Shown: positions 3,733-21,045, counted from the stretch's first letter. The stretch: DNA of 64,000 nt from Bacteroidota bacterium (GCA_025362395.1 JANYGK010000063.1:28955-92954), one strand, 5' to 3'. A program made the numbers and translations. The notes: generated by a model not told the origin, from the sequence alone.

Positions 3733-4563
3733 TTAATGGGAATGAAATACAACAAGTGGAATCGATGTGTGATTTGACATGATATTTGTAATACTTCTCT
3801 TCCAAATAGTTTCAGGGAATTTTCTGCTATGTGTTATCATTGAAAGTAAATCCGGTTTTTCTTTTTTTACAAATTCCTCGAGTCCTTCAATAATACTTGA
3901 ATTGGCTTTAATATGAAAAGAAACCTTATCATAGCCGATCTTCTTCTTAATTTCATTAACCAATTTTTGAAGTATACCGGTTGCATCAAAAATATTTAAA
4001 TCCTCTATGTAAACAAATTCTATTTCAGCATTAAACTGTTTGGCAAATACTACTGAATCACTAAAGGCTTTTAAACTATGTTTCTCTAAATCAGTAGCAA
4101 CGGTAACTTTGTAAATGCCTTTAAACTTAGCTTTTGGAGGAACTGCAATAACGGTGCAGGCAGCATCATTTATAATACCGGATGTTGTGCTTCCAAATAA
4201 TGACCTTTCTACAGCTCCTTCACCTGTAGTCCCTAATATTACAATAGAAATTTTATGTTTTTTTATATAGTGAATAATCGTGTCGGTAGCTATACCCGAT
4301 TCCACAATACATTCGGGCTTAATATCAGGAAAAATTTTAAAAAGTGAAGCTGCTAATTCATTCATTTGTTGTTCAGCGCTTTGTCGCCCTTCCATTTTTC
4401 CGATATGAGTATTTGTAAACGGAATATTTAATTCACCGGTCGGACTATCGAATGAATGAAACAAACAAATAGTTGATTCTGTTTTTTGCGCAAAGGCAAA
4501 CGCATACTTAACTGCATTTAATGCATTCTTTGAAAAATCGGTTGGTACAAGAATTGTTTTCAT
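3733..4563 (-). CDS. universal stress protein (tandem UspA domains)
   Basis: 276 aa. Starts MKTILVPTDFS and has two Usp-like halves. Paralogous in length and layout to 35320..36150. Confidence 0.85.
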   Translation of the reverse strand: MKTILVPTDFSKNALNAVKYAFAFAQKTESTICLFHSFDSPTGELNIPFTNTHIGKMEGRQSAEQQMNELAASLFKIFPDIKPECIVESGIATDTIIHYIKKHKISIVILGTTGEGAVERSLFGSTTSGIINDAACTVIAVPPKAKFKGIYKVTVATDLEKHSLKAFSDSVVFAKQFNAEIEFVYIEDLNIFDATGILQKLVNEIKKKIGYDKVSFHIKANSSIIEGLEEFVKKEKPDLLSMITHSRKFPETIWKRSITNIMSNHTSIPLVVFHSH

Positions 4564-4641
4564 AATTTTTTAATGTTAGATAATTTAATTGGAAAGTTAC
4601 AGTCTATACCTCTTTAAAAAGTTATATAACTCTTAAAATGA

Positions 4642-4712
4642 ATTGTATAATTCACAGGTATTTAAAAATTTATGGTATATACACTATTTTGATAATATGT
4701 GAATTATGTAAG
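4642..4712. promoter_or_regulatory. pair of inverted TGTGAATTAT-type motifs in the divergent usp / AI-2E promoter region
   Basis: 4642..4656 is ATTGTATAATTCACA (reverse complement TGTGAATTATACAAT). 4698..4712 is TGTGAATTATGTAAG. Each copy points toward its flanking gene. Related copies occur at 10521, 58164 and 58789. Confidence 0.45.
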
Positions 4713-4804
4713 TTTTATTTTTATTCTATAATACTTTATAACTCTCAATACCTGATTTTTACAAGTTAAAACATGCAACTATTTTAACTAAAAGCTAATT
4801 GTAT

Positions 4805-5881
4805 ATGAACATTACTGCTATATCGGTGATAAAAAAATTACTTTTACTTTTCCTTATTTTTTCAGGATTGTATTTTGCCAAGGCTTTCTTAATGCCTATT
4901 TCAATAGGAGGGGTTTTGGCAACACTCTTTCTACCCTATTGTAGATGGATGGAGAAAAGGAACATACCGAAAGGAGTGGCTGCTTTTATATGTCTTTTAA
5001 CCATCCTCATAATTATAGGCTCAATAGGTTATTTGTTGGTATGGCAAATTTCATCCCTTATGCAGGATTTTGTCTCTATAAAACAAAAAGCGCTTGAAAA
5101 AGGCATATACATTCAGGAATACATATTTAATCATTTAGGTATAGCGATAGAAAAACAATCACAGATTTTTAAGATAGAACAGCCGTCGGTTACAAGTATG
5201 GTTCAAGTAGTTTTAGGATCCTTTAAAGATCTTTTTATTAATATAATTTTGATTATGGCCTATGTTTTTATGTTGCTGTATTATCGTAGTCATATTAAAA
5301 AATTCTTTATAAAGCTTACGCCGCCGGATGAAAGGAAAGAAATGGAACAAATTGTATACAGCTCTACACATGTTGCACAGCAATACCTTTTAGGATTGGC
5401 AAAAATGATTGTGCTCCTGTGGGTTATGTATAGTATTGGCTTTGGAATAATAGGTGTTCACAACTTCATTTTTTTCGCTATTGTTTGCGGGCTTTTAGAA
5501 ATTATTCCTTTTATAGGAAACATTACCGGAACTACAATTACGGTTTTAGTAGCTGCTATTAACGGAGCGGATCTTACAATGCTAATCGGGATTGTTGTAA
5601 CCTATACTATTGTGCAATTTATTCAAAGCTGGATCTTTGAGCCGCTGATAGTAGGGCCACAGGTTAAAATTAATCCACTATTTACAATTTTAGCATTACT
5701 GCTTGGTGAAATTGTTTGGGGCATACCGGGAGTCATCATCGCTATACCAATTACAGCCATGCTTAAAATTACATGTGACCATATAGAAGCTTTAAAACCT
5801 TTTGGGTTTTTAATTGGAGAACTTGATACAGAAAAACCGGGGAAAAATTTCTTATTTAAATTGAAACATTTCTTTAAATAA
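4805..5881 (+). CDS. AI-2E (PerM/YhhT) family transporter
   Basis: Polytopic membrane protein of about 358 aa with the characteristic C-terminal GxxGxxxAIP segment (WGIPGVIIAIPITAM). ATG at 4805 preferred over the TTG at 4799. Confidence 0.8.
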   Translation: MNITAISVIKKLLLLFLIFSGLYFAKAFLMPISIGGVLATLFLPYCRWMEKRNIPKGVAAFICLLTILIIIGSIGYLLVWQISSLMQDFVSIKQKALEKGIYIQEYIFNHLGIAIEKQSQIFKIEQPSVTSMVQVVLGSFKDLFINIILIMAYVFMLLYYRSHIKKFFIKLTPPDERKEMEQIVYSSTHVAQQYLLGLAKMIVLLWVMYSIGFGIIGVHNFIFFAIVCGLLEIIPFIGNITGTTITVLVAAINGADLTMLIGIVVTYTIVQFIQSWIFEPLIVGPQVKINPLFTILALLLGEIVWGIPGVIIAIPITAMLKITCDHIEALKPFGFLIGELDTEKPGKNFLFKLKHFFK

Positions 5882-5883
5882 TA

Positions 5884-7566
5884 GTGGATACTTTCATTCA
5901 TATACTGAAGCTTTGTGCGGGAGTAGGATTATTCCTATTTGCCATGTATCTTATTGAAGAATCGTTAAAAAATCTGTCAGGCAGAAATTTTAAACTTTTT
6001 TTGCAACGCATTACCAAAAATAAATTAGGCGCGGTAACCGGGGGTGCTATTGTAACAGGGGTGCTTCAAAGCAGTTCACTGGTTTCATTAATGGTACTTG
6101 CTTTTGTAGGAGCGGGTGTATTTACCATGAAAAATGCATTGGCAATTATATTAGGTGCAAATTTGGGAACAACCTTAGATAGTTGGTTGGTAGCCACTCT
6201 TGGCTTTAAAACAAATATAGAAGTAGTGGCATATCCGGCAATTTTTGTGGGAGGCTTATTACTTATTTTATTTGGTAAACGAACTTTCGTAAAATATATT
6301 TCCTATTTTTTATTTGGTTTTGGGCTACTATTTATAGGTCTTTCATTTATGAAAACCGCTATGGAGTCTCAGGTTCAGGCCTTTGATTTTTCTCACTACA
6401 CGAAAATGCCATTAGCGGTATTTTTATTAATTGGTTTTTTAATAACCTTATTGGTTCAATCAAGTTCCGTAACAATGGCACTTACACTTACTGCACTTCA
6501 TGTTGGAGCTGTTAACTTTCCTGCAGCGGCAGCTATTGTACTTGGTTCGGAAACCGGAACCACCATTAAATTAGTACTGAGTGGCATTGGTGGAACTGCC
6601 TCAAAAAAAAGGGTTGTATTAGGCAATTTGATATTTAATATAGTCCTCACCTTATTGGCTTTTATATTTATAAAACCTCTTTTGCAATTAATTACTTCTG
6701 TTCTTAATATTACGAGTCCTCTTATTGGATTAGTGACCTTTTCGAGCCTGGTTAATCTGTTTAGTATAGCACTGTTTCTTCCATTTCTAAATCTCTTCGT
6801 TCAATTTCTTGAGAAATTCTTTAAAAACACAGACGTTGCCGGGGCGGCTTTTATTGGACATGCTTCTGTTGAAGAACCACAAACTGCTTTGGATTTATTT
6901 AAAAGAGAGATAAACTATTTTATTTACAACAGTATGCTTCTTAATCTGGAACAGCTTGAAGTTGATGCCGGGTGGTTAAAAGGGAATTCTGACGTAATAA
7001 AGATGAATGAGCGTAAGAAATTCGCCTTAAAAACGACCCCGGAGAAATATGAATTCTTAAAACTTTTACAAGGTGAATTACAAACATTTTATTTATTACT
7101 CAGAACAAAATTGACGGGAGTTCAGTTGGCTGAATTGAGCCAATTGGCTTCTTCCGCCCGTGATAGCATGCACTCCGTAAAGAGCATGAAGGATATTAAA
7201 ACTAATATTACCGATCTTAGTCGCTCTTCCAAAAATATTAAATTCAATGTGTTAAACCTACAAAAAACTCAAACAGAAAATTTATACAAATTATTAAACT
7301 CCTATATAGTGAGTATAGATGCAACCGACTTTGAAAATTTGCAAATGGCATATAGCGACATACAAAAAAACTATAACGACACGCTTACCGGCTTTTACAC
7401 AGACGCTCAAACAACAGCCATTGAAAATATGGATATGACAACCGTTATTAGTTTTAACAGAGAACTCTTCTCATCAAATAAAGCGATGCTAATGGCCGTA
7501 AAAGACTTTTTACTGGACGAAAAACAAGCAGAGGATTTTAATGAAATCCAAGCCGATAATACATAA
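5884..7566 (+). CDS. Na/Pi cotransporter family protein with PhoU-like C-terminal domain
   Basis: Duplicated NptA-type repeats (GANLGTTLDSW and GSETGTTIK) followed by a soluble helical tail. GTG start 2 nt after the AI-2E stop. Confidence 0.85.
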   Translation: MDTFIHILKLCAGVGLFLFAMYLIEESLKNLSGRNFKLFLQRITKNKLGAVTGGAIVTGVLQSSSLVSLMVLAFVGAGVFTMKNALAIILGANLGTTLDSWLVATLGFKTNIEVVAYPAIFVGGLLLILFGKRTFVKYISYFLFGFGLLFIGLSFMKTAMESQVQAFDFSHYTKMPLAVFLLIGFLITLLVQSSSVTMALTLTALHVGAVNFPAAAAIVLGSETGTTIKLVLSGIGGTASKKRVVLGNLIFNIVLTLLAFIFIKPLLQLITSVLNITSPLIGLVTFSSLVNLFSIALFLPFLNLFVQFLEKFFKNTDVAGAAFIGHASVEEPQTALDLFKREINYFIYNSMLLNLEQLEVDAGWLKGNSDVIKMNERKKFALKTTPEKYEFLKLLQGELQTFYLLLRTKLTGVQLAELSQLASSARDSMHSVKSMKDIKTNITDLSRSSKNIKFNVLNLQKTQTENLYKLLNSYIVSIDATDFENLQMAYSDIQKNYNDTLTGFYTDAQTTAIENMDMTTVISFNRELFSSNKAMLMAVKDFLLDEKQAEDFNEIQADNT

Positions 7567-7621
7567 GTACTCCATAAATTAGAATGGTAATTTTATAAAA
7601 ACTCACTTAATATCATAAAAT

Positions 7622-10123
7622 ATGGCTTCAACTAATTTTAATATCAAAGGCCTAAGTCCTGAAGCGGTAAAGGAATCAAGAGAAAAGTACGGATCCAATA
7701 AAGCAGACTATAAAAAAGAAAACGGCTTTATGGATGCGCTTAAAAATATTATCAAAGAACCAATGGTTACTTTATTGCTGGCAGCCTCACTTATTTATTT
7801 TGTGAGCGGTAAAACAGGCGATGGAATTTTTCTAAGCTCTGCCATTGTTTTAGTTTCCGCTATTTCGCTCTATCAGGATTCAAGAAGTAGAAACGCTTTA
7901 GATAAACTAAAAAACCTGACACAACCCAATTGCAAAGTAATACGGGATAACAAAATAGAGGAAATAAAAAGTGAAGATGTTGTTATAGGAGATAGCTTAA
8001 TGGTAGAAGAAGGAACTTTCATCACTGCAGACGGGATCATTGTACACTCTAATGATTTCTCAGTAAATGAATCTATTCTAACAGGAGAATCCTTAGTGGT
8101 TTATAAGGATCAACATAAAGAAGACAATCTCATCTTTCTGGGAACAACTGTATCTAGTGGCTTGGCTATTGCAACCATTACGGCTATCGGCATTCAAACA
8201 CGACTGGGAAAAATCGGAAAAAGCCTGGAGAGTATAAAAGAAGAAAAAACACCTTTGGAATTACAGATTGGTAACTTCGTAAAAATGATGGTCATAGCAG
8301 GTGCTATTGTTTTTTTAGTTGTTTGGGGCCTGAATTATTTTCATTCTCATAATATATTAGATAGTTTATTGAAAGCACTCACACTGGCCATGAGTATTTT
8401 ACCCGAAGAAATTCCGGTTGCTTTTACAACATTTATGGCACTGGGAGCTTGGCGACTGATGAAATCAGGCATCATTGTTAAACAAATGAAAACAGTGGAA
8501 ACCCTAGGCAGCGCTACTATTATTTGTACTGATAAAACAGGAACCATTACTGAAAACAAAATGAGCCTCGCAAAATTATTTGTAGTGTCTTCTCAAAAAA
8601 TATCCGAGCCCGAAACAACACTAAGCGAAACTGAAAAAGAACTGATTACATTGTCCATGTGGTCGAGCGAGCCAATTCCTTTCGATCCTATGGAAATAGC
8701 TCTGCATGCCGCATATTCAAAATTGGGAGTGCGTGATGAACGACCTAAATACAACTTGGTACACGAGTATCCTTTAGGCGGAAAACCACCCATGATGACA
8801 CATATTTTTGAAGACGCTAAACGACATCGGATTATTGCGGCTAAAGGTGCGCCGGAAGCATTAATGAAGGTAAGCAACTTAACCCTTGACGAAACAAAAA
8901 AAATAGAAGAAGCCATTAAAACATTAGCAAAAGAAGGATACCGGGTTTTGGGAGTTGGAGAAACAACCTTTAGTGGAACTGATTTCCCATTGGAGCAACA
9001 GGCATTTAAGTTTAAATTTAAAGGCATTGTCGCTTTTTATGATCCTCCAAAGAAAAACATTCAATCTGTTCTTGAAAGCTTTTACAACGCCGGAATTACC
9101 GTTAAAATAGTAACAGGCGATAATGCTGCTACCACAATAGCCATCGCTAAACAAATTGGATTTAGAGGATATGAGAAAAGCTTGAGTGGTGATGAACTTA
9201 TGAAATTAAGTGATATTGAATTACAAGAAAAGGTGTTAGATACACAAATATTTACGCGTATGTTTCCTGAGGCAAAACTAAAAATCATTAATGCTTTAAA
9301 ATCAAAAAATGAAATTGTAGCAATGACAGGAGACGGTGTGAATGATGGCCCCGCGCTAAAAGCAGCGCATATTGGCGTTGCCATGGGTAAAAAAGGGACA
9401 GAAATAGCTAAACAGGCTGCTTCACTTATTTTAGTGGATGATGATCTTTCTAAAATGGTAGACGCCGTAGCTATGGGCAGAAAAATTTATGCTAATTTAA
9501 AGAAGGCAATTCAGTACATTATCTCCATACACGTTCCTATCATATTAACCGTTTTTATTCCTTTGGCTTTGGGGTGGATTTATCCTAATATTTTTTCTCC
9601 TATCCACATTATCTTTTTAGAATTAATTATGGGACCTACCTGCTCAATCATTTACGAAAATGAACCTATGGAAAAAAATACAATGTTCCAAAAACCAAGA
9701 CCTTTTTCTACCGATTTTTTTAATTGGAAAGAGCTTACAATAAGCATCCTGCAAGGATTAATGATTACTGCGGGCACGCTACTAATGTACCAACTGTCAG
9801 TGGTAAAAGGTTATAGTGAATCACTGACACGAACAATGGTTTTTACAGTTCTTATAATGGCTAACATCGTTTTAACTTTAGTTAACCGGTCTTTTTACTA
9901 TTCCATTATTACAACTATAAAATATAAAAATAATATGGTGCCAATCATGATCATTATCACAATCATTGTTTCAGGACTACTCCTTTATGTGACGCCCTTT
10001 ACAAAATTTTTCCAATTCGAAAAACTGAGCTTTCTTCAATTAGGAGCTTGTGCAATAATTGGTTTCTTATCAGTTATCTGGATTGAATTGGTAAAGTTAA
10101 ACCGAAGAATTAAAAGTCGGTAA
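7622..10123 (+). CDS. cation-transporting P-type ATPase (type II-like, ion specificity unknown)
   Basis: Motifs LTGESL, phosphorylation site ICTDKTGTITENKM and hinge MTGDGVNDGPALK. About ten predicted TM helices. Confidence 0.9.
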   Translation: MASTNFNIKGLSPEAVKESREKYGSNKADYKKENGFMDALKNIIKEPMVTLLLAASLIYFVSGKTGDGIFLSSAIVLVSAISLYQDSRSRNALDKLKNLTQPNCKVIRDNKIEEIKSEDVVIGDSLMVEEGTFITADGIIVHSNDFSVNESILTGESLVVYKDQHKEDNLIFLGTTVSSGLAIATITAIGIQTRLGKIGKSLESIKEEKTPLELQIGNFVKMMVIAGAIVFLVVWGLNYFHSHNILDSLLKALTLAMSILPEEIPVAFTTFMALGAWRLMKSGIIVKQMKTVETLGSATIICTDKTGTITENKMSLAKLFVVSSQKISEPETTLSETEKELITLSMWSSEPIPFDPMEIALHAAYSKLGVRDERPKYNLVHEYPLGGKPPMMTHIFEDAKRHRIIAAKGAPEALMKVSNLTLDETKKIEEAIKTLAKEGYRVLGVGETTFSGTDFPLEQQAFKFKFKGIVAFYDPPKKNIQSVLESFYNAGITVKIVTGDNAATTIAIAKQIGFRGYEKSLSGDELMKLSDIELQEKVLDTQIFTRMFPEAKLKIINALKSKNEIVAMTGDGVNDGPALKAAHIGVAMGKKGTEIAKQAASLILVDDDLSKMVDAVAMGRKIYANLKKAIQYIISIHVPIILTVFIPLALGWIYPNIFSPIHIIFLELIMGPTCSIIYENEPMEKNTMFQKPRPFSTDFFNWKELTISILQGLMITAGTLLMYQLSVVKGYSESLTRTMVFTVLIMANIVLTLVNRSFYYSIITTIKYKNNMVPIMIIITIIVSGLLLYVTPFTKFFQFEKLSFLQLGACAIIGFLSVIWIELVKLNRRIKSR

Positions 10124-11744: not shown

Positions 11745-12218
11745 ATGAAAACAAACATTGGAATTACCGAAAAACATCTGCAAAAAAGCAGTGATATATT
11801 AACAAGCATTTTAGCAGATGAAATGACATTGTATATAAAAACAAGAAAATTTCATTGGAACGTTTCCGGTGAGAGCTTTATGGAGCTACACAAATTGTTT
11901 CAAAGTCAGTATACAGAGCTTGAAGAAGCGATTGATCAGGTAGCTGAGAGAATTGGCAAACTGGGTGAAAAAACGATAGGAACTATGACTGAATTTTTGA
12001 AACATACTTCTATAAAAGAACATGCAGGAAAATATTCTTCTTCAAAAGATTTGATTAAAGAATTACACGCGGATCATCAAACCCTTATTATAAAACTACG
12101 TAAAGACATAGAAGTGTGCAGCGAAAAAAATAAAGATTCGGGTACTGCCGACTTTTTAACGGGTTTAATGGAGCAGCACGAAACTATTGCATGGATACTG
12201 GGTAGATACTTAAATTAA
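11745..12218 (+). CDS. dps: Dps family DNA-protection / ferritin-like protein
   Basis: 157 aa. The FHWNVSG...ELH..F....EE..D..AERI pattern is typical of Dps. Confidence 0.9.
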   Translation: MKTNIGITEKHLQKSSDILTSILADEMTLYIKTRKFHWNVSGESFMELHKLFQSQYTELEEAIDQVAERIGKLGEKTIGTMTEFLKHTSIKEHAGKYSSSKDLIKELHADHQTLIIKLRKDIEVCSEKNKDSGTADFLTGLMEQHETIAWILGRYLN

Positions 12219-12284: not shown

Positions 12285-12780
12285 ATGAAAATATTAATTG
12301 TATAACATCCCACAGTACTTTAGGAAATACGGGTGAGAAAACCGGCTTTTGGATAGAAGAATTTACTACACCGTATTATATTTTGGCAGATGCAGGTGCT
12401 GAAATAACCATAGCGTCACCAAACGGAGGGCAACCATCGGTTGATCCTAAAAGTGAATTGGGAAATACTCAAACACCATCAACAGAAAGATTCTACAAGG
12501 ACACCGGTTTAATTGATAAAGTAGCGTATTCTCTAAAATTAAACGATATCAAGCAACAGGATATGATGCTATTTTTTATCCCGGAGGAAACGGGCCATTA
12601 CGGGATTTAGTGGGTAAATCCACAAAAAAACGGGGCGCTTTCTTTCTGCCGAAAATTGATTGTGCTCTCCTGCTTGTTCTATATTTTTATGTATTAACCT
12701 TTCGGGCATTATTAGAGTGGGGCGAGCAAACGTTTCATGGAAATCTTTTGATGAGAATTGTTTATCTTCTGTTTTCATAA
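12285..12780 (+). pseudogene. decayed DJ-1/PfpI (type 1 glutamine amidotransferase-like) gene
   Basis: MKILIV, then a frameshift, then TSHSTLGNTGEKTGFWIEEFTTPYYILADAGAEITIASPNGGQPSVDPKSE. A second frameshift at QQDYDAIFYPGG(N)GPL. The nucleophile-elbow region is barely recognisable and the C-terminus is missing. Confidence 0.75.
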
Positions 12781-12805
12781 TTATGTTTTTTTATACTACA
12801 AAATT

Positions 12806-12851
12806 AAATTACATTTGGACTATACAATGGTACATAAATAAGATAAATAGA
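12806..12851. promoter_or_regulatory. inverted repeat TGGACTAT-N27-ATAGTCCA directly upstream of the MocR-type regulator
   Basis: TGGACTAT at 12806..12813 and ATAGTCCAGAT at 12841..12851. The 11-mer ATAGTCCAGAT recurs at 16682..16692. Confidence 0.45.
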
Positions 12852-12859
12852 TAGTCCAG

Positions 12860-14275
12860 ATGCTTAGACCGTGGAAGTTAGAAATACGAATTAACACTAA
12901 TAGTAATAAAGCTATTTATATACAAATAGCAGATGCAATTATTGAAGCTGTTAAATCAAGTAAGTTAAATAAAGGCGATGCTTTGCCCGGTAGCAGAAAA
13001 TTAGCAGAGTTATTAAAAGTTAATAGAAATACGGTAATTGAGGCTTTAGATATTTTATTATCAGAAGGCTGGCTTATTGCTAAAGAAAGAAAAGGAACAT
13101 TTGTAGCGGATATTTTACCCGATACTAAAGAGTCAAAAACAAAGGAAAGAAACAAAATTGAGAAAAAAGAAATAGAAGTAAAGCCCAATTTAATTTTTGA
13201 TGATGGTTTACCCGATAGCCGATTAGCTCCAATGAATGAAATAGCTAGAGCCTACCGCCAAATATTCAACCGAAAATCTCGTTGGCAAATAATGGGATAT
13301 AGTAATGAACTTGGCGATATTGAATTTAGAAAAGCAATAGCTCAGATGCTTAATTTTAAACGAGGTATGAGTATTAATACTAACCAAATTTGTATTACTA
13401 GAGGTAGTCAAATGGCTATGTATTTAGCGGCTCATAGTTTATTTAACTTAGGGGATTATGTTATGATTGAAAATCCGGGATACAAACCTGCATGGCAAGC
13501 GTTTGAAAATGCAGGCGCTAAATTACTGCCGGTAAGTATTGATAGTGAGGGAATACAAATTAATGAAATAGAAAAATATTTAAAAAAATATAAAACAATT
13601 AAAGCAATTTATGTTACGCCGCATCATCAATTTCCTACCACAGTAACTTTGAGTTTAAAAAGAAGGTTAAAACTTATTGAATTATCAAATCAATACGGGT
13701 TTATAATTATTGAAGATGATTACGATAATGAATTTCATTTTGGACAAAGACCAATTTTACCAATAGCTAGTTACCAAAATGCTAAACACTTTATTTATAT
13801 AGGCACACTCAGTAAAATTGTAGCACCAGCTTTAAGAATTGGATATTTGGTAAGTAATGAAGCTATTATCATTAACGTTGGAAAACATAGGAAAATGATA
13901 GATGTGCAAGGAGACAATATAATGGAAGAAGCAATTTTGCAACTTATAAATGAAGGAGAAATAAAACGACATTTAAAAAGAACTACACTTATTTATAAAA
14001 CGAAGAGGGATTATTTTGAAAAAATATGTAATACCTATTTAAAAGGAAAAGCAATGTTTACTAAACCAGACGGCGGATTAGCATTTTGGATTGTTCCAAC
14101 TAAAAAAATTAATGTAATTGATGTAACACATAAATTATTGAAAAAAGGAATTAAAATTATGTCGCCAGAAGCTTTTAGTTTTAATATGCCAATATTAGGA
14201 TTTAGATTAGGTTACGCATCCTTAACGGAAAAACAAATTGAAGAAGGTATTATTGCACTATCTAAACATTTATGA
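12860..14275 (+). CDS. MocR/GabR-type regulator (GntR wHTH fused to a PLP-dependent aminotransferase-fold domain)
   Basis: N-terminal GntR HTH (LPGSRKLAELLKVNRNTVIEALDIL) and a C-terminal fold-type I domain with a PLP-lysine context (GTLSKIVAPALRIGYL). Confidence 0.9.
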   Translation: MLRPWKLEIRINTNSNKAIYIQIADAIIEAVKSSKLNKGDALPGSRKLAELLKVNRNTVIEALDILLSEGWLIAKERKGTFVADILPDTKESKTKERNKIEKKEIEVKPNLIFDDGLPDSRLAPMNEIARAYRQIFNRKSRWQIMGYSNELGDIEFRKAIAQMLNFKRGMSINTNQICITRGSQMAMYLAAHSLFNLGDYVMIENPGYKPAWQAFENAGAKLLPVSIDSEGIQINEIEKYLKKYKTIKAIYVTPHHQFPTTVTLSLKRRLKLIELSNQYGFIIIEDDYDNEFHFGQRPILPIASYQNAKHFIYIGTLSKIVAPALRIGYLVSNEAIIINVGKHRKMIDVQGDNIMEEAILQLINEGEIKRHLKRTTLIYKTKRDYFEKICNTYLKGKAMFTKPDGGLAFWIVPTKKINVIDVTHKLLKKGIKIMSPEAFSFNMPILGFRLGYASLTEKQIEEGIIALSKHL

Positions 14276-14872
14276 TGCTATCCGGTGTTCAGGGCAGTCT
14301 ACTCTCAATTCGTTATTTAGTAGTGGTTTGTTTAGTAAGTTACAATGATGAGTAGTTTTATTTTTATTATAAAATTTGCACGTTAAACACATTCTTTGAA
14401 CTGTAATAATTCCTTCCTGATTTAATTTATTTATCAATTCAAGAAGGCTTACTAATAGTGTTTCTTTTTGATTGTCGGTAAAGTTAGTTATAGGCTTTTC
14501 TATAATGCCAGCAAATGAAGAAGATTGTTGAGCTATTTTTTTTCCAGAATTAGTTAATGAAATACTAAAACCTCTTGAATCAATTGTATTGTATTCTTTT
14601 ATTATCAAGTTTTTATCTAATAATAACTTTACAGAATCACTTATTGTAGCTTTGGTCATATTAAATTCTTTGGCTAAATAACTTATATTACATTTTTCGT
14701 TACTATGAAAAAGTAAAAATATTAGTATTTGAGTTTGTATAGGGCTAAGCTTATTTATCCTACTTTCCTGCCAAAGTAAAACTCTAAATACCTCTGATAT
14801 TCTTTCGAGTGCAACAACAATTTTACTTTCTATACGACTATTTTGGTTTATATCAAAAACAGATGTTTTCAT
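14270..14872 (-). CDS. MarR-like winged-helix regulator with a Cys/His-rich C-terminal tail
   Basis: wHTH core (ISYLAKEFNMTKATISDSVKLLLDKNLI) plus tail MCLTCKFYNKNKTTHHCNLL...RVDCPEH. Its stop overlaps the convergent MocR stop by 6 nt. Confidence 0.75.
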   Translation of the reverse strand: MKTSVFDINQNSRIESKIVVALERISEVFRVLLWQESRINKLSPIQTQILIFLLFHSNEKCNISYLAKEFNMTKATISDSVKLLLDKNLIIKEYNTIDSRGFSISLTNSGKKIAQQSSSFAGIIEKPITNFTDNQKETLLVSLLELINKLNQEGIITVQRMCLTCKFYNKNKTTHHCNLLNKPLLNNELRVDCPEHRIAS

Positions 14873-14913
14873 TTTTATATAGTGTAGATAATTAACAATT
14901 TAATATGAATACT

Positions 14914-15174
14914 TTAACAACCGTCCATTTCAATAATATAATATCCAACTTTATTTATAGCTACTTGCATAGCCTCTGTTGCTTTTTCAATATGACAGTA
15001 ACGACATTCTTTTGCACTTAAAAGTTGTCCTTCTTGTTTTTTTTCTCTTAGATATAATTTACCAAATTCGTATATAAAATCCGCATCTTTAATTGATGTT
15101 GGTGCAATAATATCAAAGTGCATTATGCTACCATCTTTCTTTTTTACATAGGTGTCCCAAACTACTACTTCCAT
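14914..15174 (-). CDS. DUF2024-like small protein with CxxCH motif (paralogue 1)
   Basis: 86 aa. MEVVVWDTYVKKKDGSIMHFDII...ECRYCHIEKATEA matches my recollection of the DUF2024 signature. Confidence 0.65.
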   Translation of the reverse strand: MEVVVWDTYVKKKDGSIMHFDIIAPTSIKDADFIYEFGKLYLREKKQEGQLLSAKECRYCHIEKATEAMQVAINKVGYYIIEMDGC

Positions 15175-15268
15175 TTTATTTGATTAATTTGTTTAATGTT
15201 GTTAATTAATTTTTGGCGAATAAAGCCAGTTTAATAGTGTTAAATAAGCAATAAAAATATGTAGCATA

Positions 15269-15532
15269 TTAAAACCCCCAATGTTTAAATATTGAATATC
15301 CTTTGCTATTTATATCATTAATAATAGCCTCTGTTGCTATTTCCATGTGACAAAAATCACATTCATCAGCACTGATAAGATTTACGGCAATAATTTTCTC
15401 ATCTTTTAAAAATGAATTTCCGTAATCGTATATTTTTTGCAAATCCATTAAACCAGACGGAACTAAAATATCGAATTTAATCATCGTACCATCGTCTTTT
15501 TTAAATACGGTATCGTAAACTGAAATTTCCAT
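15269..15532 (-). CDS. DUF2024-like small protein with CxxCH motif (paralogue 2)
   Basis: 87 aa. MEISVYDTVFKKDDGTMIKFDIL...ECDFCHMEIATEA. Roughly 40-45 percent identical by eye to the neighbouring paralogue. Confidence 0.65.
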   Translation of the reverse strand: MEISVYDTVFKKDDGTMIKFDILVPSGLMDLQKIYDYGNSFLKDEKIIAVNLISADECDFCHMEIATEAIINDINSKGYSIFKHWGF

Positions 15533-15592
15533 TTTTTAAGATTAAAAAAAGCTTTAAACTAAATAGCTTAAAGCCTTTTTTTGTTTTTTAAA

Positions 15593-16324
15593 TTATTTTG
15601 TTTTTACTGTGTATGGCAATGTTAATTTACCTGATGCAACGCTATACACATCCATTACTCCTAACATTGGCATCATCATATTAGAAGTATTAACAGCCAT
15701 GTAACAAGTAACAGCATCAAACTTAAAGTCAATTTTATTATTAATTCTGTAAGAAGGTATAACTACTTGTATTGTATTGCCTTTAGTTATAACCTGAAAT
15801 CCGGGGCTATCCATATACATTGGCATATTTGGTGCAGTGGTAGGTAGTTTAACTGTTTTATCTTCTTTTTTAAATTCTTTTACTGCAAGTCCACCTTTCA
15901 CTCTTTCATCTTTTACTAATAAAACCCAATGAGGATGCCATACACGACCGTCATCTGAAAATATACCATTATTATTTTCGTCCCATAAAGGCGAATCATC
16001 AAAATCAGGATGAGAGGTTAGTGCCAATGCTACAATGCCTTCTGTTTTATTAAAACCAACATCTTCAGATTTTAGGGTAGTTGGAAAAACATAACCCAAA
16101 ACACCTGCACCATCCAATTTACCAATTGAATCGGGCATTGTTACACCTGCTTTTCCTTTTACTTGGATAGACATTACTAATTCTTTTAAATTAGCATTAT
16201 AGCTTGCTGTTGTTGATACAATAACAAAGTTTTCGTTATTAAATTTTTGACATTTATCACAGGCGAAAGCTGATGGGATAACAAATGTTGTCATTATTGA
16301 CAAAGTATAAATTATTTTTTTCAT
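15593..16324 (-). CDS. secreted protein of unknown function with N-terminal CxxC and His/Met-rich motifs
   Basis: Signal peptide ending AFA, mature N-terminus CDKCQ. Motifs SHPDFDDSPLWDE and WHPHW. Met clusters PNMPMYMD and NMMMPMLGVMD. Confidence 0.7.
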   Translation of the reverse strand: MKKIIYTLSIMTTFVIPSAFACDKCQKFNNENFVIVSTTASYNANLKELVMSIQVKGKAGVTMPDSIGKLDGAGVLGYVFPTTLKSEDVGFNKTEGIVALALTSHPDFDDSPLWDENNNGIFSDDGRVWHPHWVLLVKDERVKGGLAVKEFKKEDKTVKLPTTAPNMPMYMDSPGFQVITKGNTIQVVIPSYRINNKIDFKFDAVTCYMAVNTSNMMMPMLGVMDVYSVASGKLTLPYTVKTK

Positions 16325-16375
16325 GTTATTTTTGATTTTAGTTATTTAAAGTCCTTCATATAGTGGGGCGTAATT

Positions 16376-16609
16376 TTATCCTTTAACATCTGCCATAGAT
16401 GCGCCAAAGTTAAGGTGCAATACATTTCCGTTTGGAGTTACCAATGCCGGAACTGATTTTACCCCTGCAGCTTCTGCTGCCGCAATTTTAGTTTTATCTT
16501 TACCTAAATGTATTACCTCTACATTTGAAGGATTGATTAAACTTAGTATGTCTTGTTCTGCACTAATACATACTGGACAACCTGCGTGATAAAAAATTGA
16601 TTTGCTCAT
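16376..16609 (-). CDS. small thioredoxin-fold protein with CPVC redox motif
   Basis: 77 aa. FYHAGCPVC near the N-terminus and a VPALV cis-Pro-like segment, as in glutaredoxin-like / redox-active disulfide protein 2 type proteins. Confidence 0.75.
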   Translation of the reverse strand: MSKSIFYHAGCPVCISAEQDILSLINPSNVEVIHLGKDKTKIAAAEAAGVKSVPALVTPNGNVLHLNFGASMADVKG

Positions 16610-16632
16610 TTTATTTAATTTTTTAGTTTTTT

Positions 16633-16717
16633 TGTTGGCATTATTGCCGATACAATATTAGTAAGGACTCCTAACTATATAATAGTCCAGATTTTAGAAT
16701 TATTGAGAATAACTGGA
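16633..16717. promoter_or_regulatory. promoter/operator region of the thioredoxin-fold operon
   Basis: Near-palindrome TGGCA-TTAT-TGCCG (16636..16649) lies 27-40 nt before the ATG at 16609. GGACT-N15-AGTCC surrounds ATAGTCCAGAT (16682..16692), with a distal CTGGA at 16713..16717. Confidence 0.4.
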
Positions 16718-16776
16718 TTAATTAATAAAATATCATTAGGTATAACTGTTTAGTTAGCTAACTATTTCTTTAAATC

Positions 16777-17159
16777 TCATTCTTTTTTATTGATACTATA
16801 AACGTAATTTAGTTTAGATTGCTTGCCAAAGTATGCAACTTCTTGTTCAGCAACTTTAATTGCGCCTAATCGGTAGGCTATTTGCGAACGAATATTATTA
16901 GCACCTATATGGAAATTTACACTTTAAACAAATTGAAAAATATAATCCACATTAAAGACTTAGCGGAATGATTTATTGCTTTTCCCCATTGTGTTGTAGC
17001 GTAAAAGGTATATCCAATTAGTATGCTATTTTCCTGATTATTATAGTCATAAAATCGAGTGCAGCCTATTATATATTCTGTAGTTTTATCTACTATTTTA
17101 AATGCACCACTACTTTCTGTAAAAAAAGTAAAGAAAAAGTAACGTATATAATCGTTCAC
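16777..17159 (-). pseudogene. GNAT (RimJ/RimL-like) N-acetyltransferase, 5'-truncated and frameshifted
   Basis: ...GAFKIVDKTTEYIIGCTRFYDY...IGYTFYATTQWGKAINHSAKSLM, then a frameshift at about 16917, then VNFHIGANNIRSQIAYRLGAIKVAEQEVAYFGKQSKLNYVYSINKKE*. About 50 N-terminal codons are absent. Confidence 0.7.
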
Positions 17160-17720
17160 ATGGTAGATAGATTCTCTCGTTCGGGTGCAAATGCCATTTA
17201 TATTAAAGAGAATTTAAAATCTAATGGCATTTACATCATGTCGGTAAGACAACCGGTTGATGTTATGACAACCAGCGGAGATTTTCAGCAAAATATATAA
17301 ATGATTTTTCCCACTACGATAATCAAGTAAGAAATTGAAAGCAAATTAAAACGCTTAGAAGAACGTTACGTAACAGAAGAATTACGACAAGATTTATACG
17401 TAAAATACGTTGAGAAATACAAGCAAGAAAAGGTCGAAATATGAAAGATTGGGTAGGGATGGAGTGCAAGGGTTCGAACCAAGAAAAAGTGATAGATTTA
17501 GCCCTCCAAAATGCCCTAAACTTGACTAATATGTGGGTTTCTGGCGGCTGGAAGCGAAAGGTAAGATTGCAGTATTTGCTGTTTCCTAATGGTTTACACT
17601 ATAATAAGAAAAATGACACAGTTCGAACCGAAAATATAAATCAGGCGTTCCTCTGGATGGCTTGTCAACAGCAGAAAATAAGCCGAATAAAAAGCGGAAT
17701 ACCGATATTAAATATCAAGT
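17160..17720 (+). pseudogene. decayed large serine recombinase (resolvase-type integrase relic)
   Basis: Fragment VDRFSRSGANAIYIKENLKSNGIYIMSVRQPVDVMTTSGDFQQNI (resolvase catalytic-domain core). Stops and frameshifts follow, then C-terminal-like pieces LKRLEERYVTEELRQDLYVKYVEKYKQEKVEI and NLTNMWVSGGWKRKVRLQYLLFPNGLHYNKKNDTVRTENIN. The middle of the gene is missing. It abuts the ssrA 3' end. Confidence 0.65.
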
Positions 17721-17730
17721 ATTCCGCTCC

Positions 17731-18098
17731 GGTGGACCCGGAGAGATTCGAACTCTCGTCCAAACAAGGAATTAGTGAGCTTTCTACAAAGTTTAGAACT
17801 TACTTGGTTTTCGATTTAAGTCAGGCGTAAATTCATACCAAACTTAAACTTAGCTATTGGTATTGCTTTAAGTAATAGCATTCCTAAAACAATTTGCTAA
17901 TTTATGATGCAAAATTCTCGTCGCTAAGCAAAAACGCTACGAGGGTTGCAAAGGTTGCTAAATCTTAGATTAAGCAGCCATAGCGTAAGAATTCTCTTCG
18001 CCGAATAAAAGTTTGAGAGTTGATTTTAAGGTGCCATATCCACAACGCACCACCTGCTTACTCATCAATCGCGCTCGCTGTCAAAACCGGTCGGGCCC
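17731..18098 (-). ncRNA. ssrA: tmRNA (ssrA)
   Basis: The minus strand starts GGGCCCGACCGGTTTTGACAGCG and ends GGACGAGAGTTCGAATCTCTCCGGGTCCACC. The acceptor stem GGGCCCG/CGGGTCC has a G3-U pair, and a T-arm is present. Internal tag ORF GGC GAA GAG AAT TCT TAC GCT ATG GCT GCT TAA gives GEENSYAMAA. The terminal A of CCA is not encoded. Confidence 0.92.
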
Positions 18099-18666: not shown

Positions 18667-21045
18667 TTATTTTGCTACAACGATCGGTTTGGTCGCTACT
18701 CCCGATTTAGAACTTAAGGTTATATAATAAACACCCGATTTATAATCGCTTATATTAATAGGATATGTAAAGGATTCATTTAATATAATTTTTTCCGTAT
18801 ATAATAACCTTCCGGCAATATCCCGTATCTCCACCAGCGCATCTTCCCCGTTTTTTGTATAACCGGTTAATTGTATGATATCCGTAGCAGGATTCGGTAC
18901 CGCCGAAAAGTAATGATCTGTGTTGGCGATCTGCGCCACACCCACTCCAATATTCATTTGCATGCAAATGGTATCTCTTACTTTATTGATTGCTTCGTAT
19001 TGCTTATTCACTATATCCGTAATACTTGTAATACAGATATTCCCTGTGGGGTTGGTATAATAAACCCGGCAAAGTGACTGTGGTGTAGAGCTCTTGGGAA
19101 TGGTAGAATCCTTATATGATAAACAAATGATTTTATTTCCGTTTACTAAAAAATCAGGATTTTCAGGGTAAAACGCTATGGGAACCCGGTTAACTACATT
19201 TAAAATGCTTGCCCCGCTAATGTTGAACTCATAACCCAAAATGGGTGAATTCGGATTTGTAATGTCTATATCAAAAAAGTTTTGGGCAAGGTTAATACCG
19301 CTTATACTTATGGTAGCTGTTTGATTGGGATTGAGGGTTCCCTGCGGGAACATACATTTTGAATTGAGGTTGGTACCATGCAAGGCGCAGTTTGTGATGA
19401 GGGCGGCGTCCCATACCGTTATGCTTCCGCTGTTGTTAAGATCATTACAGGACGTGGGCGTAATCGTATTGTTCAGTATCTTACTAACATACAACCGCCC
19501 ATCTACCACCTGTTGAGTTCCGCTTACATTTAAATCTCCCATCTTGGTTGTACCCGCACATACCCCATTACAATCTACCTTGGCATTACCGAATTGTACA
19601 CCCGCGCAGTCAGAAAAAGAAGGACATGAGCTCAGTAAATTAAAGCTTTTAACGCCTGCCGAATTTTTGGTAATGTGAATACAGGCTTGGGCCCAGTTGT
19701 TATCGTAAGTTTTTTCATAATGTCCCAAAGCATCTGCCGATTGGTCCCAGTTTACTTTAGCTGCCATGGTATAGCTTCCAGTATCTACGTCCGTAATATC
19801 GATCCATTGACAATCCAGCCCGGCGGAATAAATATCTCCGCATTGCTTGGAAATTCCCATGTTACTACAGGAGAACTTGGCTATTCCCCCGTCCGGGCAA
19901 CCGTCGTAATCCAATACACAAAAACCGTTCTTAAACCCAACAGGGATCATGCTACCGTTAAACTTATACAAGCGGTACTCCGCATAACCCTCATAATGCG
20001 CATGCCCGTGGCAATTATTAAACGTAAACTGACCGGGGTGCGTGGAAGGCCCGCCAATGTAATAATCCAGGTCGCCGACATTCTTAATGTAGGTATCAAA
20101 TTTAATTACTGTACGGTTTCCGTAACCGCTCAGGCAACTTTCCGCTACACGGCAATCTCCCGCAAGTGCATTTACTGTTCCGAGGTTCAGTGAGCTGATA
20201 AACTGCGACTGAACAATGGTAAGATCAGGTCCCGAACATAATGGATTGGGATAATACATACAGCTTCCGTCATCTACACTCGCCAAAGGATTATAATTAC
20301 AGGCCGTAGAAACCGTACAACCCGAAATAGGACCGGCATAATTAATTGCAAATGTAATAGGGGCTGAACAGGCGCTGTTAAGCGAGCCTACTCTTATGAT
20401 ATAGGTTTTAGCGGTATCCAATGCGCCTGATACTTTTGAAAGCAAAGCGCAATAATCATCATTATACATGATAGTACCTGTATTATTGGTTGTAAAAGGG
20501 CCGTTGCAATTTTCATATACCCATATTTTGGTATTACAGGTATTGGTTAAGCCACACATAGTAAAATCGTATATGCCAAGCTGTGTAGGCTTAAACTTAT
20601 AATAATATTCCGACCCGGGGGCCGTATAGGTACCCGTAGTGACTGACAATGCGGAAGAGCAGGATTCCCCTGGCGCGCAATTGAAATAGTAATTATATGA
20701 GCTTCCGTATTGCCCGTTATTATTGAGCTGCAACACATTGTTAACGTAAATTTGGAAACTGCCCGTACCGTAATTACAGCATATCCCGTCACCGTATGTG
20801 TCAGTAATATTAAAATCAAGGCAAGTTGATGAACTCACGCATACAGTAGATGTATAGGTAGTTGTATTGGTTAAGGTAGGATTAGATAAAAGGACATTCC
20901 CGAATTTATCCTTTAATAGCCAGGAAGTTTCCAACGGGTAATTGTCAGTGGATAATACTATTTTAATTTGTATTTGTCCTACAGGGCATTGGCTGTAAGC
21001 AACGGACATTAAGCTGATTAATAAGTAAGTAAAGATGTATTTCAT
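18667..21045 (-). CDS. T9SS-secreted multidomain protein with a lysyl oxidase (LOX) catalytic domain
   Basis: Signal peptide. Cys-rich N-terminal modules. LOX core: PDLTIV...NNCHGHAHYEGY...GFKNGFCVLDY...CGDIYSAGLDCQWIDITDV, where CQWIDITDV is identical to animal LOX. C-terminal type A T9SS sorting domain (VPNPATDIIQL...GVYYITLSS...). Confidence 0.85.
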   Translation of the reverse strand: MKYIFTYLLISLMSVAYSQCPVGQIQIKIVLSTDNYPLETSWLLKDKFGNVLLSNPTLTNTTTYTSTVCVSSSTCLDFNITDTYGDGICCNYGTGSFQIYVNNVLQLNNNGQYGSSYNYYFNCAPGESCSSALSVTTGTYTAPGSEYYYKFKPTQLGIYDFTMCGLTNTCNTKIWVYENCNGPFTTNNTGTIMYNDDYCALLSKVSGALDTAKTYIIRVGSLNSACSAPITFAINYAGPISGCTVSTACNYNPLASVDDGSCMYYPNPLCSGPDLTIVQSQFISSLNLGTVNALAGDCRVAESCLSGYGNRTVIKFDTYIKNVGDLDYYIGGPSTHPGQFTFNNCHGHAHYEGYAEYRLYKFNGSMIPVGFKNGFCVLDYDGCPDGGIAKFSCSNMGISKQCGDIYSAGLDCQWIDITDVDTGSYTMAAKVNWDQSADALGHYEKTYDNNWAQACIHITKNSAGVKSFNLLSSCPSFSDCAGVQFGNAKVDCNGVCAGTTKMGDLNVSGTQQVVDGRLYVSKILNNTITPTSCNDLNNSGSITVWDAALITNCALHGTNLNSKCMFPQGTLNPNQTATISISGINLAQNFFDIDITNPNSPILGYEFNISGASILNVVNRVPIAFYPENPDFLVNGNKIICLSYKDSTIPKSSTPQSLCRVYYTNPTGNICITSITDIVNKQYEAINKVRDTICMQMNIGVGVAQIANTDHYFSAVPNPATDIIQLTGYTKNGEDALVEIRDIAGRLLYTEKIILNESFTYPINISDYKSGVYYITLSSKSGVATKPIVVAK

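Follow-up and report, generated by a model that had tools for sequence, protein, structure and literature searches.

The regulator ArnR of Corynebacterium glutamicum is a MarR/ArsR-like winged helix-turn-helix protein with a C-terminal [4Fe-4S] cluster, whose nitrosylation by nitric oxide (NO) relieves the repression of hmp, narKGHJI being also under its control (PMC12343034). It has three conserved cysteines (positions 179, 193 and 223) and a distribution nearly confined to Actinobacteria (PMC12343034). NsrR, of the Rrf2 family, governs a compact regulon in which NO-handling heme proteins are combined with repair functions (its cargo being hmp, ytfE and hcp) under a palindromic operator overlapping the promoter, and OhrR, MgrA/SarZ and MexR, which share the MarR fold, carry their sensing cysteines inside the MarR core. 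In the case of OxyR, the sensor is reset by Grx1 in a feedback loop. The locus described here lies in a 64-kb stretch of DNA from a Bacteroidota bacterium (GCA_025362395.1 JANYGK010000063.1:28955-92954; hereafter the window, along which all coordinates are counted), where five minus-strand genes form a real operon and one functional unit (Table 1). They encode a small thioredoxin-like protein (Trx77), a secreted protein (P243), two DUF2024 paralogues (DUF2024b and DUF2024a) and a MarR-type regulator with a tail of four cysteines (MarRCys). We hold with moderate confidence that they represent one copy of a modular regulon, autoregulated and devoted to redox or nitrosative stress, and the nearest working analogue of its regulator is probably, in our best reading, ArnR.

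Gene order, its conservation, the operator, the association of operator and regulator, and the list of cargo genes were all observed directly across genomes. The original prediction had read this block as a dedicated metal- or thiol-handling operon, and open reading frame (ORF) translations recovered its five minus-strand genes, the short gaps between them (51, 60, 94 and 41 nt along the operon) and the motifs that it had quoted. Likewise, the families do co-occur elsewhere: in a sample of 80 Bacteroidota loci collected around P243 and searched with tblastn for the module genes, Trx77-P243-DUF2024-MarRCys kept identical order and strand in about 50, and this order recurs in dozens of genera, with no other recurrent neighbour emerging when all ORFs of the Bacteroidota loci were clustered. 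A second P243 subfamily is found in Alpha-, Beta- and Gammaproteobacteria and in Meiothermus. MarRCys adjoins P243 in 61 of 81 Bacteroidota loci and in 73 of 80 proteobacterial loci, where the MarR gene mostly runs divergently and its product ends in a Cys4 tail of the same kind. Chance co-location of the module genes is excluded. The proteobacterial loci have their own accessory genes, namely an AhpC/TSA-like redoxin with a CPGC motif (27 loci), MOSC/YiiM (25) and the heme protein HTHP (13), with Trx77 and DUF2024 present in four loci each.

The 19-bp palindrome predicted as the operator occurs as a single copy in the window, as confirmed by a DNA search of both strands; a general repeat search did not report it at its settings. 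The adjacent promoter box resembles TAnnTTTG, which we take to be the Bacteroidota -7 element, and in related loci TATTTG comes immediately after the palindrome, so that the junction reads ..ACTATATTTG, from which the window copy departs by one mismatch. In 50 of 52 Bacteroidota loci the consensus TAGTTAGGAwTCCTwACTA was found at -53 to -80 upstream of the first gene, the right arm of the palindrome running into the TAnnTTTG box. An exact scan for the operator over ~185,000 genomes returned 119 loci, 113 of them at a module with this type of regulator: 96 sites lay at most 400 bp from a known module gene, and 17 preceded alternative cargo, mostly followed by DUF2024 and/or MarRCys. Of the six hits not counted, four had no module genes nearby, one stood beside an unrelated short MarR-like gene on a contig of an archaeal metagenome-assembled genome, and one had solely a cytochrome P460 match in its vicinity. 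Proteobacteria have a related palindrome, TAGTAnCGAsTCGnTACTA, which 57 of 60 intergenic regions carry behind a TTGCAA box, and 106 of 120 metagenomic matches to this proteobacterial-type operator fell at modules. Moreover, the GTTAGGAnTCCTAA core was present upstream of Bacteroidota-type regulators in four of nine non-Bacteroidota loci, Meiothermus included, and in none of the 60 loci with alpha-type regulators. Such a tracking of the operator core with the regulator subtype supports the assignment of one to the other, and MarRCys is thus predicted to bind the 19-bp palindrome beside its own promoter. Further upstream, at 16751-16764, there is a perfect 14-bp palindrome, TAGTTAGCTAACTA, composed of operator half-sites without the central GAnTC; it was considered as a second operator and rejected, being not conserved, with one chance match in 365 loci.

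Altogether, the constant core of the system is the Cys4-tailed MarR protein plus the promoter-overlapping palindrome, and the cargo is mix-and-match. Operons seeded on the operator took the form Trx77-P243-DUF2024-MarRCys in 25 cases (plus nine cut by contig ends), Trx77-MarRCys in 19, Trx77-DUF2024-MarRCys in 17, protoglobin with or without DUF2024 and redoxin and then MarRCys in ~11, and cytochrome P460-MarRCys in ~5, the remainder being mixed forms such as protoglobin-P243-DUF2024-MarRCys. Pfam searches identified among the cargo Protoglobin (6e-29), Cytochrome_P460 (1e-33), HTHP (4e-31), AhpC-TSA/Redoxin, MOSC and an Fe/Mn superoxide dismutase (SOD) whose N-terminus reads as a twin-arginine (Tat) signal. 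Metagenomic contigs added, as divergent partners of the regulator, a globin, a cytochrome cd1 (NirS/NirN-like) and a CGFS glutaredoxin fused to an IscA-like domain. In five of them (L390, L422, L449, L457 and L483) an RpoH-like sigma factor is divergent from MarRCys across the proteobacterial-type operator, so that in some Proteobacteria the regulator may sit atop a sigma-factor cascade. Three classes can be told apart among the variable genes. One comprises small thiol/metal proteins of the cytoplasm (Trx77, DUF2024, the AhpC-like redoxin and Grx-IscA), another the effectors (protoglobin, globin, cytochrome P460, cd1, HTHP and SOD), many of these being binders of diatomic ligands or destroyers of reactive species of oxygen or nitrogen, and MOSC/YiiM makes up the third. 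What is known of several of these proteins agrees with such a grouping. Detoxification of N-hydroxylated bases is the function of YiiM-type MOSC proteins. Ligand binding characterises the heme proteins cytochrome P460 and cytochrome c'-beta, the former of which also oxidises NH2OH (PMC11928373, PMC10411619). For protoglobin, activities as a nitrite reductase and as a peroxynitrite isomerase are described (PMC4020757), and for HTHP a peroxidatic one (PMC4813847). How far such an assembly may go is illustrated by L001, the relative nearest to the window (94% identity), where a ten-gene version at 4417-9856, with an IS4-like transposase upstream, contains two Trx77 genes, a P243 paralogue with a tail for the type IX secretion system (T9SS), P243 itself, an Fe/Mn SOD with a Tat-like N-terminus, two DUF2024 genes, HTHP, a CPGC redoxin and MarRCys. 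The operon of the window is a shorter variant of it.

As the original prediction had proposed, MarRCys is a MarR-family winged helix-turn-helix protein. It matches MarR_2 (PF12802) with 32.5 bits against a cut-off of 27 and MarR (PF01047) with 27.8 against 24.6; residues 14-152 are modelled by AlphaFold2 (AF2) as a MarR fold, and Foldseek matches MepR, MexR and ST1710 with E ~1e-7 over 130-146 columns, which cover the MarR core only. A NCBIfam match to the AdcR-type zinc MarR was weak (35 bits against a cut-off of 175), and Rrf2 was absent among the Pfam matches at E up to 0.1 and from the NCBIfam ones, which belonged to MarR-type and other winged-helix families. The protein has 1505 homologues. 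In an alignment of tails from Bacteroidota and Proteobacteria the pattern is C-x2-C-x11-16-C-x15-C-x-E-[H/Q], the four cysteines being its sole invariant residues. No relative of this tail was found in the PDB or Pfam; its cysteine spacing is HiPIP-like, a lead only, with a Pfam match that is not significant (E 0.089). Thiol or redox sensing is the best reading of such a tail, and this is the part of the proposed metal or thiol-redox module that stood, its copper-like part being unsupported as discussed below. MarRCys is probably a repressor and, as its gene is the last of the operon, probably autoregulated.

Compared with the systems cited above, MarRCys resembles ArnR in its parts, namely a MarR/ArsR-like winged helix at the N-terminus, a helix for dimerisation and, at the C-terminus, a cysteine-bearing sensory domain without known homologues, and in being, as proposed here, a repressor of globin-type NO-detoxifying genes. 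It differs, with ArnR taken from its published description, in having four invariant cysteines at another spacing, in its occurrence in Bacteroidota, Proteobacteria and Meiothermus, and in its cargo. With NsrR it shares a compact regulon of NO-handling heme proteins and repair functions and a palindromic operator overlapping the promoter, but the DNA-binding family is MarR rather than Rrf2 and the cargo is P243, DUF2024 and Trx77. The MarR fold is shared with OhrR, MgrA/SarZ and MexR, and cysteine-based sensing is plausible for MarRCys, whereas a separate four-cysteine domain of ~45 residues is added here to the core. The co-transcribed CxxC protein Trx77 could reset the MarRCys sensor much as Grx1 does for OxyR.

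From these elements we infer how repression, the cofactor, the inducing signal and each biochemical activity may fit together. A dimer of MarRCys would bind the palindrome abutting the -7 box and keep the operon repressed, with a redox-labile cofactor or site held in the C-terminal four-Cys domain, which might be an iron-sulfur (Fe-S) cluster like those of ArnR, NsrR and SufR or else a switch of the Zn-thiolate/disulfide type. NO, related N-oxides or oxidants would modify this site and release the repressor. Derepression would lead to the expression of MarRCys itself, of the cytoplasmic 'maintenance' proteins, the CxxC-bearing Trx77 and the Cys/His-containing DUF2024, and of a variable effector cargo, which in the window would be P243. 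Trx77 and DUF2024 probably reduce or re-metallate damaged thiol or metal sites and may reset the sensor. P243 would most likely be an extracytoplasmic metalloprotein with a three-His site acting against the same stress, in the operator-proximal place that protoglobin or cytochrome P460 takes in other operons.

No match to P243 was found in Pfam or NCBIfam at E up to 0.1, nor among PDB sequences, either with the single sequence or with a profile at E up to 10. Its AF2 model is confident (predicted local distance difference test, pLDDT, 85) and all-beta, and a Foldseek search of PDB folds gave no match at E<0.001, the best one reaching 0.024; all the matches were immunoglobulin-type domains with a query-normalised template-modelling (TM) score <0.3. 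P243 is a secreted protein of an unnamed family, all-beta (beta-sandwich) in its model, with 2441 homologues at 60-90% identity in Bacteroidota and Verrucomicrobiota. A HMMER scan of 1.84 billion cluster representatives returned only 309 members and no bridge to a known family, so that the family is a compact one. No substitution is seen at H105, P106, W133 and a few Gly/Phe residues among family members that have diverged to 26-51% identity, and hardly any at H130, H132, F108, D109 and D110. These residues form the SHPDFDD and WHxHW motifs, and the conserved histidines neighbour an acidic DxD/DENxDG loop. In the model H105 ends one strand and H130/H132 start the next, which makes a three-His site at the base of the long acidic loop geometrically plausible. 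The mature protein has exactly three histidines, all of them conserved in the family, and 5% methionine; it is not His-rich, contrary to its original description as Met/His-rich. Some relatives carry T9SS or PEP-CTERM sorting tails, which confirms the extracytoplasmic location, and in our own reading the A-x-A before the first cysteine is as compatible with signal peptidase I as with a lipobox, or more so. With cytochrome P460 and protoglobin P243 shares the first-gene position behind the same operator, and with cytochrome P460 also its export. However, it has no sequence or fold similarity to cytochrome P460/c'-beta or protoglobin, and it lacks a heme motif, having instead the three histidines and the acidic loops. 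Several candidate identities were discarded: Cu,Zn SOD or another known beta-sandwich metalloenzyme, for lack of sequence or fold similarity; a CopC/PCuAC/CusF-like Cu(I) Met-motif protein, since no profile matched and MMMPM/MPMYM are non-Met in relatives; and a HmuY/nitrobindin-like or P460-like protein, for which no sequence or fold match was obtained in Pfam, NCBIfam or the PDB.

The cytoplasmic partners can be placed more easily. Trx77 is 65% identical (E 1.7e-26) to PDB 2K8S, a solved 80-aa 'Thioredoxin', but it stays below the Pfam thioredoxin cut-offs (16.6 bits against 24.8 for PF13192, Thioredoxin_3); its homologues do carry PF13192 and are named 'thioredoxin family protein'. Cysteines C11 and C14 and the SVPAL segment are at least 95% conserved. 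The original assignment to the thioredoxin fold is thus backed by the structure match and by the conserved CxxC and cis-Pro, with the Pfam profile falling short, and the protein is best described as a predicted cytoplasmic thioredoxin/glutaredoxin-like one. It is the commonest partner of MarRCys in Bacteroidota (57 of 81 loci, and 82 of the 119 operator loci). For the 86- and 87-aa pair, PF09630 had been suggested, and both paralogues do belong to this DUF2024 family over their full length, with 108 bits for DUF2024a and 73 for DUF2024b (cut-off 27). The two are 43% identical. DUF2024a, which matches PDB 2HFQ (E 1e-19), is canonical, with MHFDI, His19, CxxCH and a C-terminal Cys, a putative ligand set, all present; DUF2024b has diverged, keeping CxxCH and replacing His19 by Lys and the final Cys by Phe. 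Among the Bacteroidota P243 loci a second copy is present solely in the window, L001 and L002. In operator-seeded operons DUF2024 lies nearly always immediately upstream of MarRCys, and a 293-aa in-frame DUF2024-MarRCys fusion (P0129), a single cluster that may be a sequencing artefact, gives a hint that DUF2024 acts directly with the regulator. The putative ligand residues are conserved throughout the system, as had been anticipated: the four tail cysteines, the CxxC of Trx77, the CxxCH of DUF2024 and the three histidines of P243. Both 2K8S and 2HFQ are structural-genomics targets, with structures but no assigned function, and presumably Nitrosomonas proteins. DUF2024 was found in 29 of 30 Thaumarchaeota surveyed (PMC6393860), and it is conserved in ammonia-oxidising Nitrosomonadaceae (L162-L241) beside an O-methyltransferase, a secreted 175-aa protein and an ArsC/Spx-like CxxC protein; this synteny was not used as evidence because all 80 loci come from one family.

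Three other explanations were weighed. In a metal homeostasis system, copper- or zinc-like, the tail would sense the metal, P243 would bind periplasmic Cu(I) or Zn through its Met and His residues, and DUF2024 and Trx77 would serve as chaperones. The invariant H105, the nearly invariant H130 and H132, the methionine content of P243, the conserved CxxC, CxxCH and Cys4 motifs and the weak AdcR-type match of the regulator would all suit it, and DUF2024 has indeed been termed a 'metal-binding protein' (PMC6393860). Nevertheless, MMMPM and most of MPMYMD, in which the original prediction saw Cu(I)-type Met motifs, and the N-terminal CxxC are confined to the Bacteroidota/Verrucomicrobiota subfamily of P243 and lost outside it, and P243 has no match to any Pfam metal-chaperone family. 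Moreover, no recurrent metal transporter, efflux pump or known metallochaperone (P-type ATPase, RND/CusF, CopC/PCuAC/Sco, ZnuA or TonB receptor) was found in ~400 related loci, where the alternative cargo consists of heme proteins, peroxidase-type proteins and SOD. The copper reading is left unsupported since neither are the Met clusters and CxxC conserved nor is any metal transporter or chaperone linked, and metal homeostasis at large seems improbable to us.

Slightly less probable again is a heme or iron stress regulon, in which the regulator would respond to heme or to Fe-S/iron status, like PefR or SufR, and P243 would be an extracytoplasmic heme-binder. Much of the cargo is indeed heme protein (protoglobin, cytochrome P460, HTHP, globin and cd1), one Grx(CGFS)-IscA-like Fe-S carrier is found among it, the MarR domain has PefR among its structural matches and a Dps gene lies nearby in the window. 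But PefR is not known to carry a Cys4 tail, the module is linked neither to suf genes nor to genes by which heme is taken up, exported or degraded, P243 resembles in fold neither HmuY nor nitrobindin nor another heme-binding beta protein of the PDB, and SOD, an AhpC-like redoxin, MOSC and an RpoH-like sigma factor are also among the cargo. The least probable of the explanations considered is a sensor of oxygen tension (hypoxia or aerobiosis), where an O2-labile, FNR-like Fe-S cluster in the tail would tune globins and antioxidant proteins. The globin and protoglobin cargo, the four invariant cysteines, their HiPIP-like spacing, despite a Pfam match short of significance, and the fact that carriers of the module are mostly aerobic aquatic bacteria speak in its favour; nonetheless, cytochrome P460, MOSC/YiiM and cd1 suggest N-oxide chemistry rather than O2 supply, the cargo contains no respiratory oxidase or reductase genes, and ArnR, of similar design, is not an O2 sensor (PMC12343034). 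The heme/iron regulon and the O2 sensor are possible readings that account for less of the cargo than does a redox or nitrosative-stress regulon.

The redox or nitrosative-stress regulon that we favour has to face some observations that weigh against it. The cargo is heterogeneous enough for reactive oxygen species, reactive nitrogen species, O2 or heme each to be a possible cue, and 36 of the 119 operator operons contain Trx77 with or without DUF2024 plus the regulator, with no obvious effector. AF2 models the MarRCys tail with low confidence, as short beta-hairpins, and this tail could be a purely structural zinc site, with another site as the sensor, such as C61, a residue that does not vary within the close subfamily. 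In ~14 Flavobacterium loci (L031, L041, L047 and ~11 more) P243 occurs alone, without Trx77, DUF2024, regulator or operator; P243 is uncoupled from MarRCys and operator control in this lineage and, consequently, it is not strictly dependent on the system. Finally, the Nitrosomonas homologues of Trx77 and DUF2024 are unlinked to each other or to a MarRCys-type regulator, and in the loci inspected the Trx77 homologue stands alone, lacking both a regulator and any obvious operator.

A MarR repressor that senses stress through a thiol or an Fe-S site is of a known kind. What is new lies in the Cys4 tail, in the operator, in the modular cargo that spans phyla and in the P243 family, and no published description of the regulator, the operator or P243 was found in the literature searched. 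The regulon is defined from sequence alone, down to the regulator, the exact operator, the promoter geometry and the cargo list, and Bacteroidota and Proteobacteria harbour it in many hundreds of species. It provides a physiological frame for three families without known function (P243, DUF2024 and the 2K8S-type mini-thioredoxin), and it connects these with cytochrome P460 and protoglobin, proteins of still uncertain role beyond nitrifiers and archaea. If the Cys4 tail is an Fe-S or thiolate sensor of NO or oxidants, the system would be a Bacteroidota counterpart of NsrR and ArnR. A more extended reading can be drawn, which as a whole we regard as rather unlikely. MarRCys would then represent a new phylum-spanning class of NO/hydroxylamine-responsive repressors, with a MarR core and a Cys4 Fe-S or Zn-thiolate tail; P243 would be a new extracytoplasmic non-heme three-His metalloenzyme detoxifying NO, NH2OH, superoxide or peroxynitrite in replacement of cytochrome P460; and DUF2024, a family near-universal in ammonia-oxidising archaea, together with the 2K8S-type thioredoxin, families that are both present in Nitrosomonadaceae, would be dedicated repair and reset factors. 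If this is true, three 'dark-matter' families would receive their first functions, and the occurrence of cytochrome P460 and protoglobin in non-nitrifiers would be explained.

Table 1. Position of the operon, its control elements and its neighbours along the window.
Feature	Coordinates	Strand	Remarks
Predicted operator, 19-bp palindrome (9-1-9)	16659-16677	minus	TAGTTAGGAGTCCTTACTA; 68 nt upstream of first start codon
Putative -7 promoter box	16653-16660	minus	TAATATTG; overlaps last two bases of palindrome
Trx77 gene (77 aa)	16376-16609	minus	CPVC at residues 11-14
P243 gene (243 aa)	15593-16324	minus	AFA-CDKCQ, SHPDFDD, WHPHW, PNMPMYMD, NMMMPMLGVMD
DUF2024b gene (87 aa)	15269-15532	minus	ECDFCH
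DUF2024a gene (86 aa)	14914-15174	minus	ECRYCH
MarRCys gene (200 aa)	14270-14872	minus	tail CLTCKFY..HHC..DCPEH
MarRCys C-terminal tail (residues ~155-200)	14273-14410	minus	C162-x2-C165-x12-C178-x15-C194-P-E-H
MocR/PdxR-like pyridoxal phosphate (PLP)-dependent regulator gene	12860-14275	plus	NF052282, 354 bits
Transfer-messenger RNA (tmRNA, ssrA)	17730-18098	minus	tag peptide GEENSYAMAA
Resolvase fragment (46 aa)	17160-17300	plus	between tmRNA and operon, 3' side of tmRNA
GNAT fragment (80 aa)	16917-17159	minus	between tmRNA and operon, 3' side of tmRNA

Regarding the surroundings, GC content is 0.28 in 14001-16000 and 0.30-0.40 in the rest of the window, and no terminator-like sites were detected within 14000-17200. 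The MocR/PdxR-like gene is convergent with MarRCys, and the 6-nt overlap at the MarRCys stop that had been described was seen here and, identically, in L001; a MocR gene also adjoins the module in L026 and L040 and is nearby in L009 and L032. Since this neighbour recurs in relatives, that side of the operon is conserved chromosomal context. On the opposite side, directly upstream of the operon promoter, the resolvase and GNAT fragments look like the decayed remnant of an ssrA-integrated element. The view of the region as accessory DNA is therefore only partly sustained: the mobile, modular cargo and the decayed recombinase by ssrA agree with it, whereas the conserved MocR neighbour does not. 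Some minor features complete the picture. The Dps gene (ferritin-like, oxidative-stress), at 11745-12218 on the plus strand, is two genes away from the operon, and after it ~470 bp of short overlapping ORFs (12383-12854) may be a decayed gene; a single ORF from that stretch, 12383-12610, gave no match in Pfam. Beyond the tmRNA, a minus-strand gene at 18667-21045 encodes a secreted Cys-rich protein of 792 aa, whose C-terminal region resembles a T9SS sorting domain, typical of Bacteroidota.

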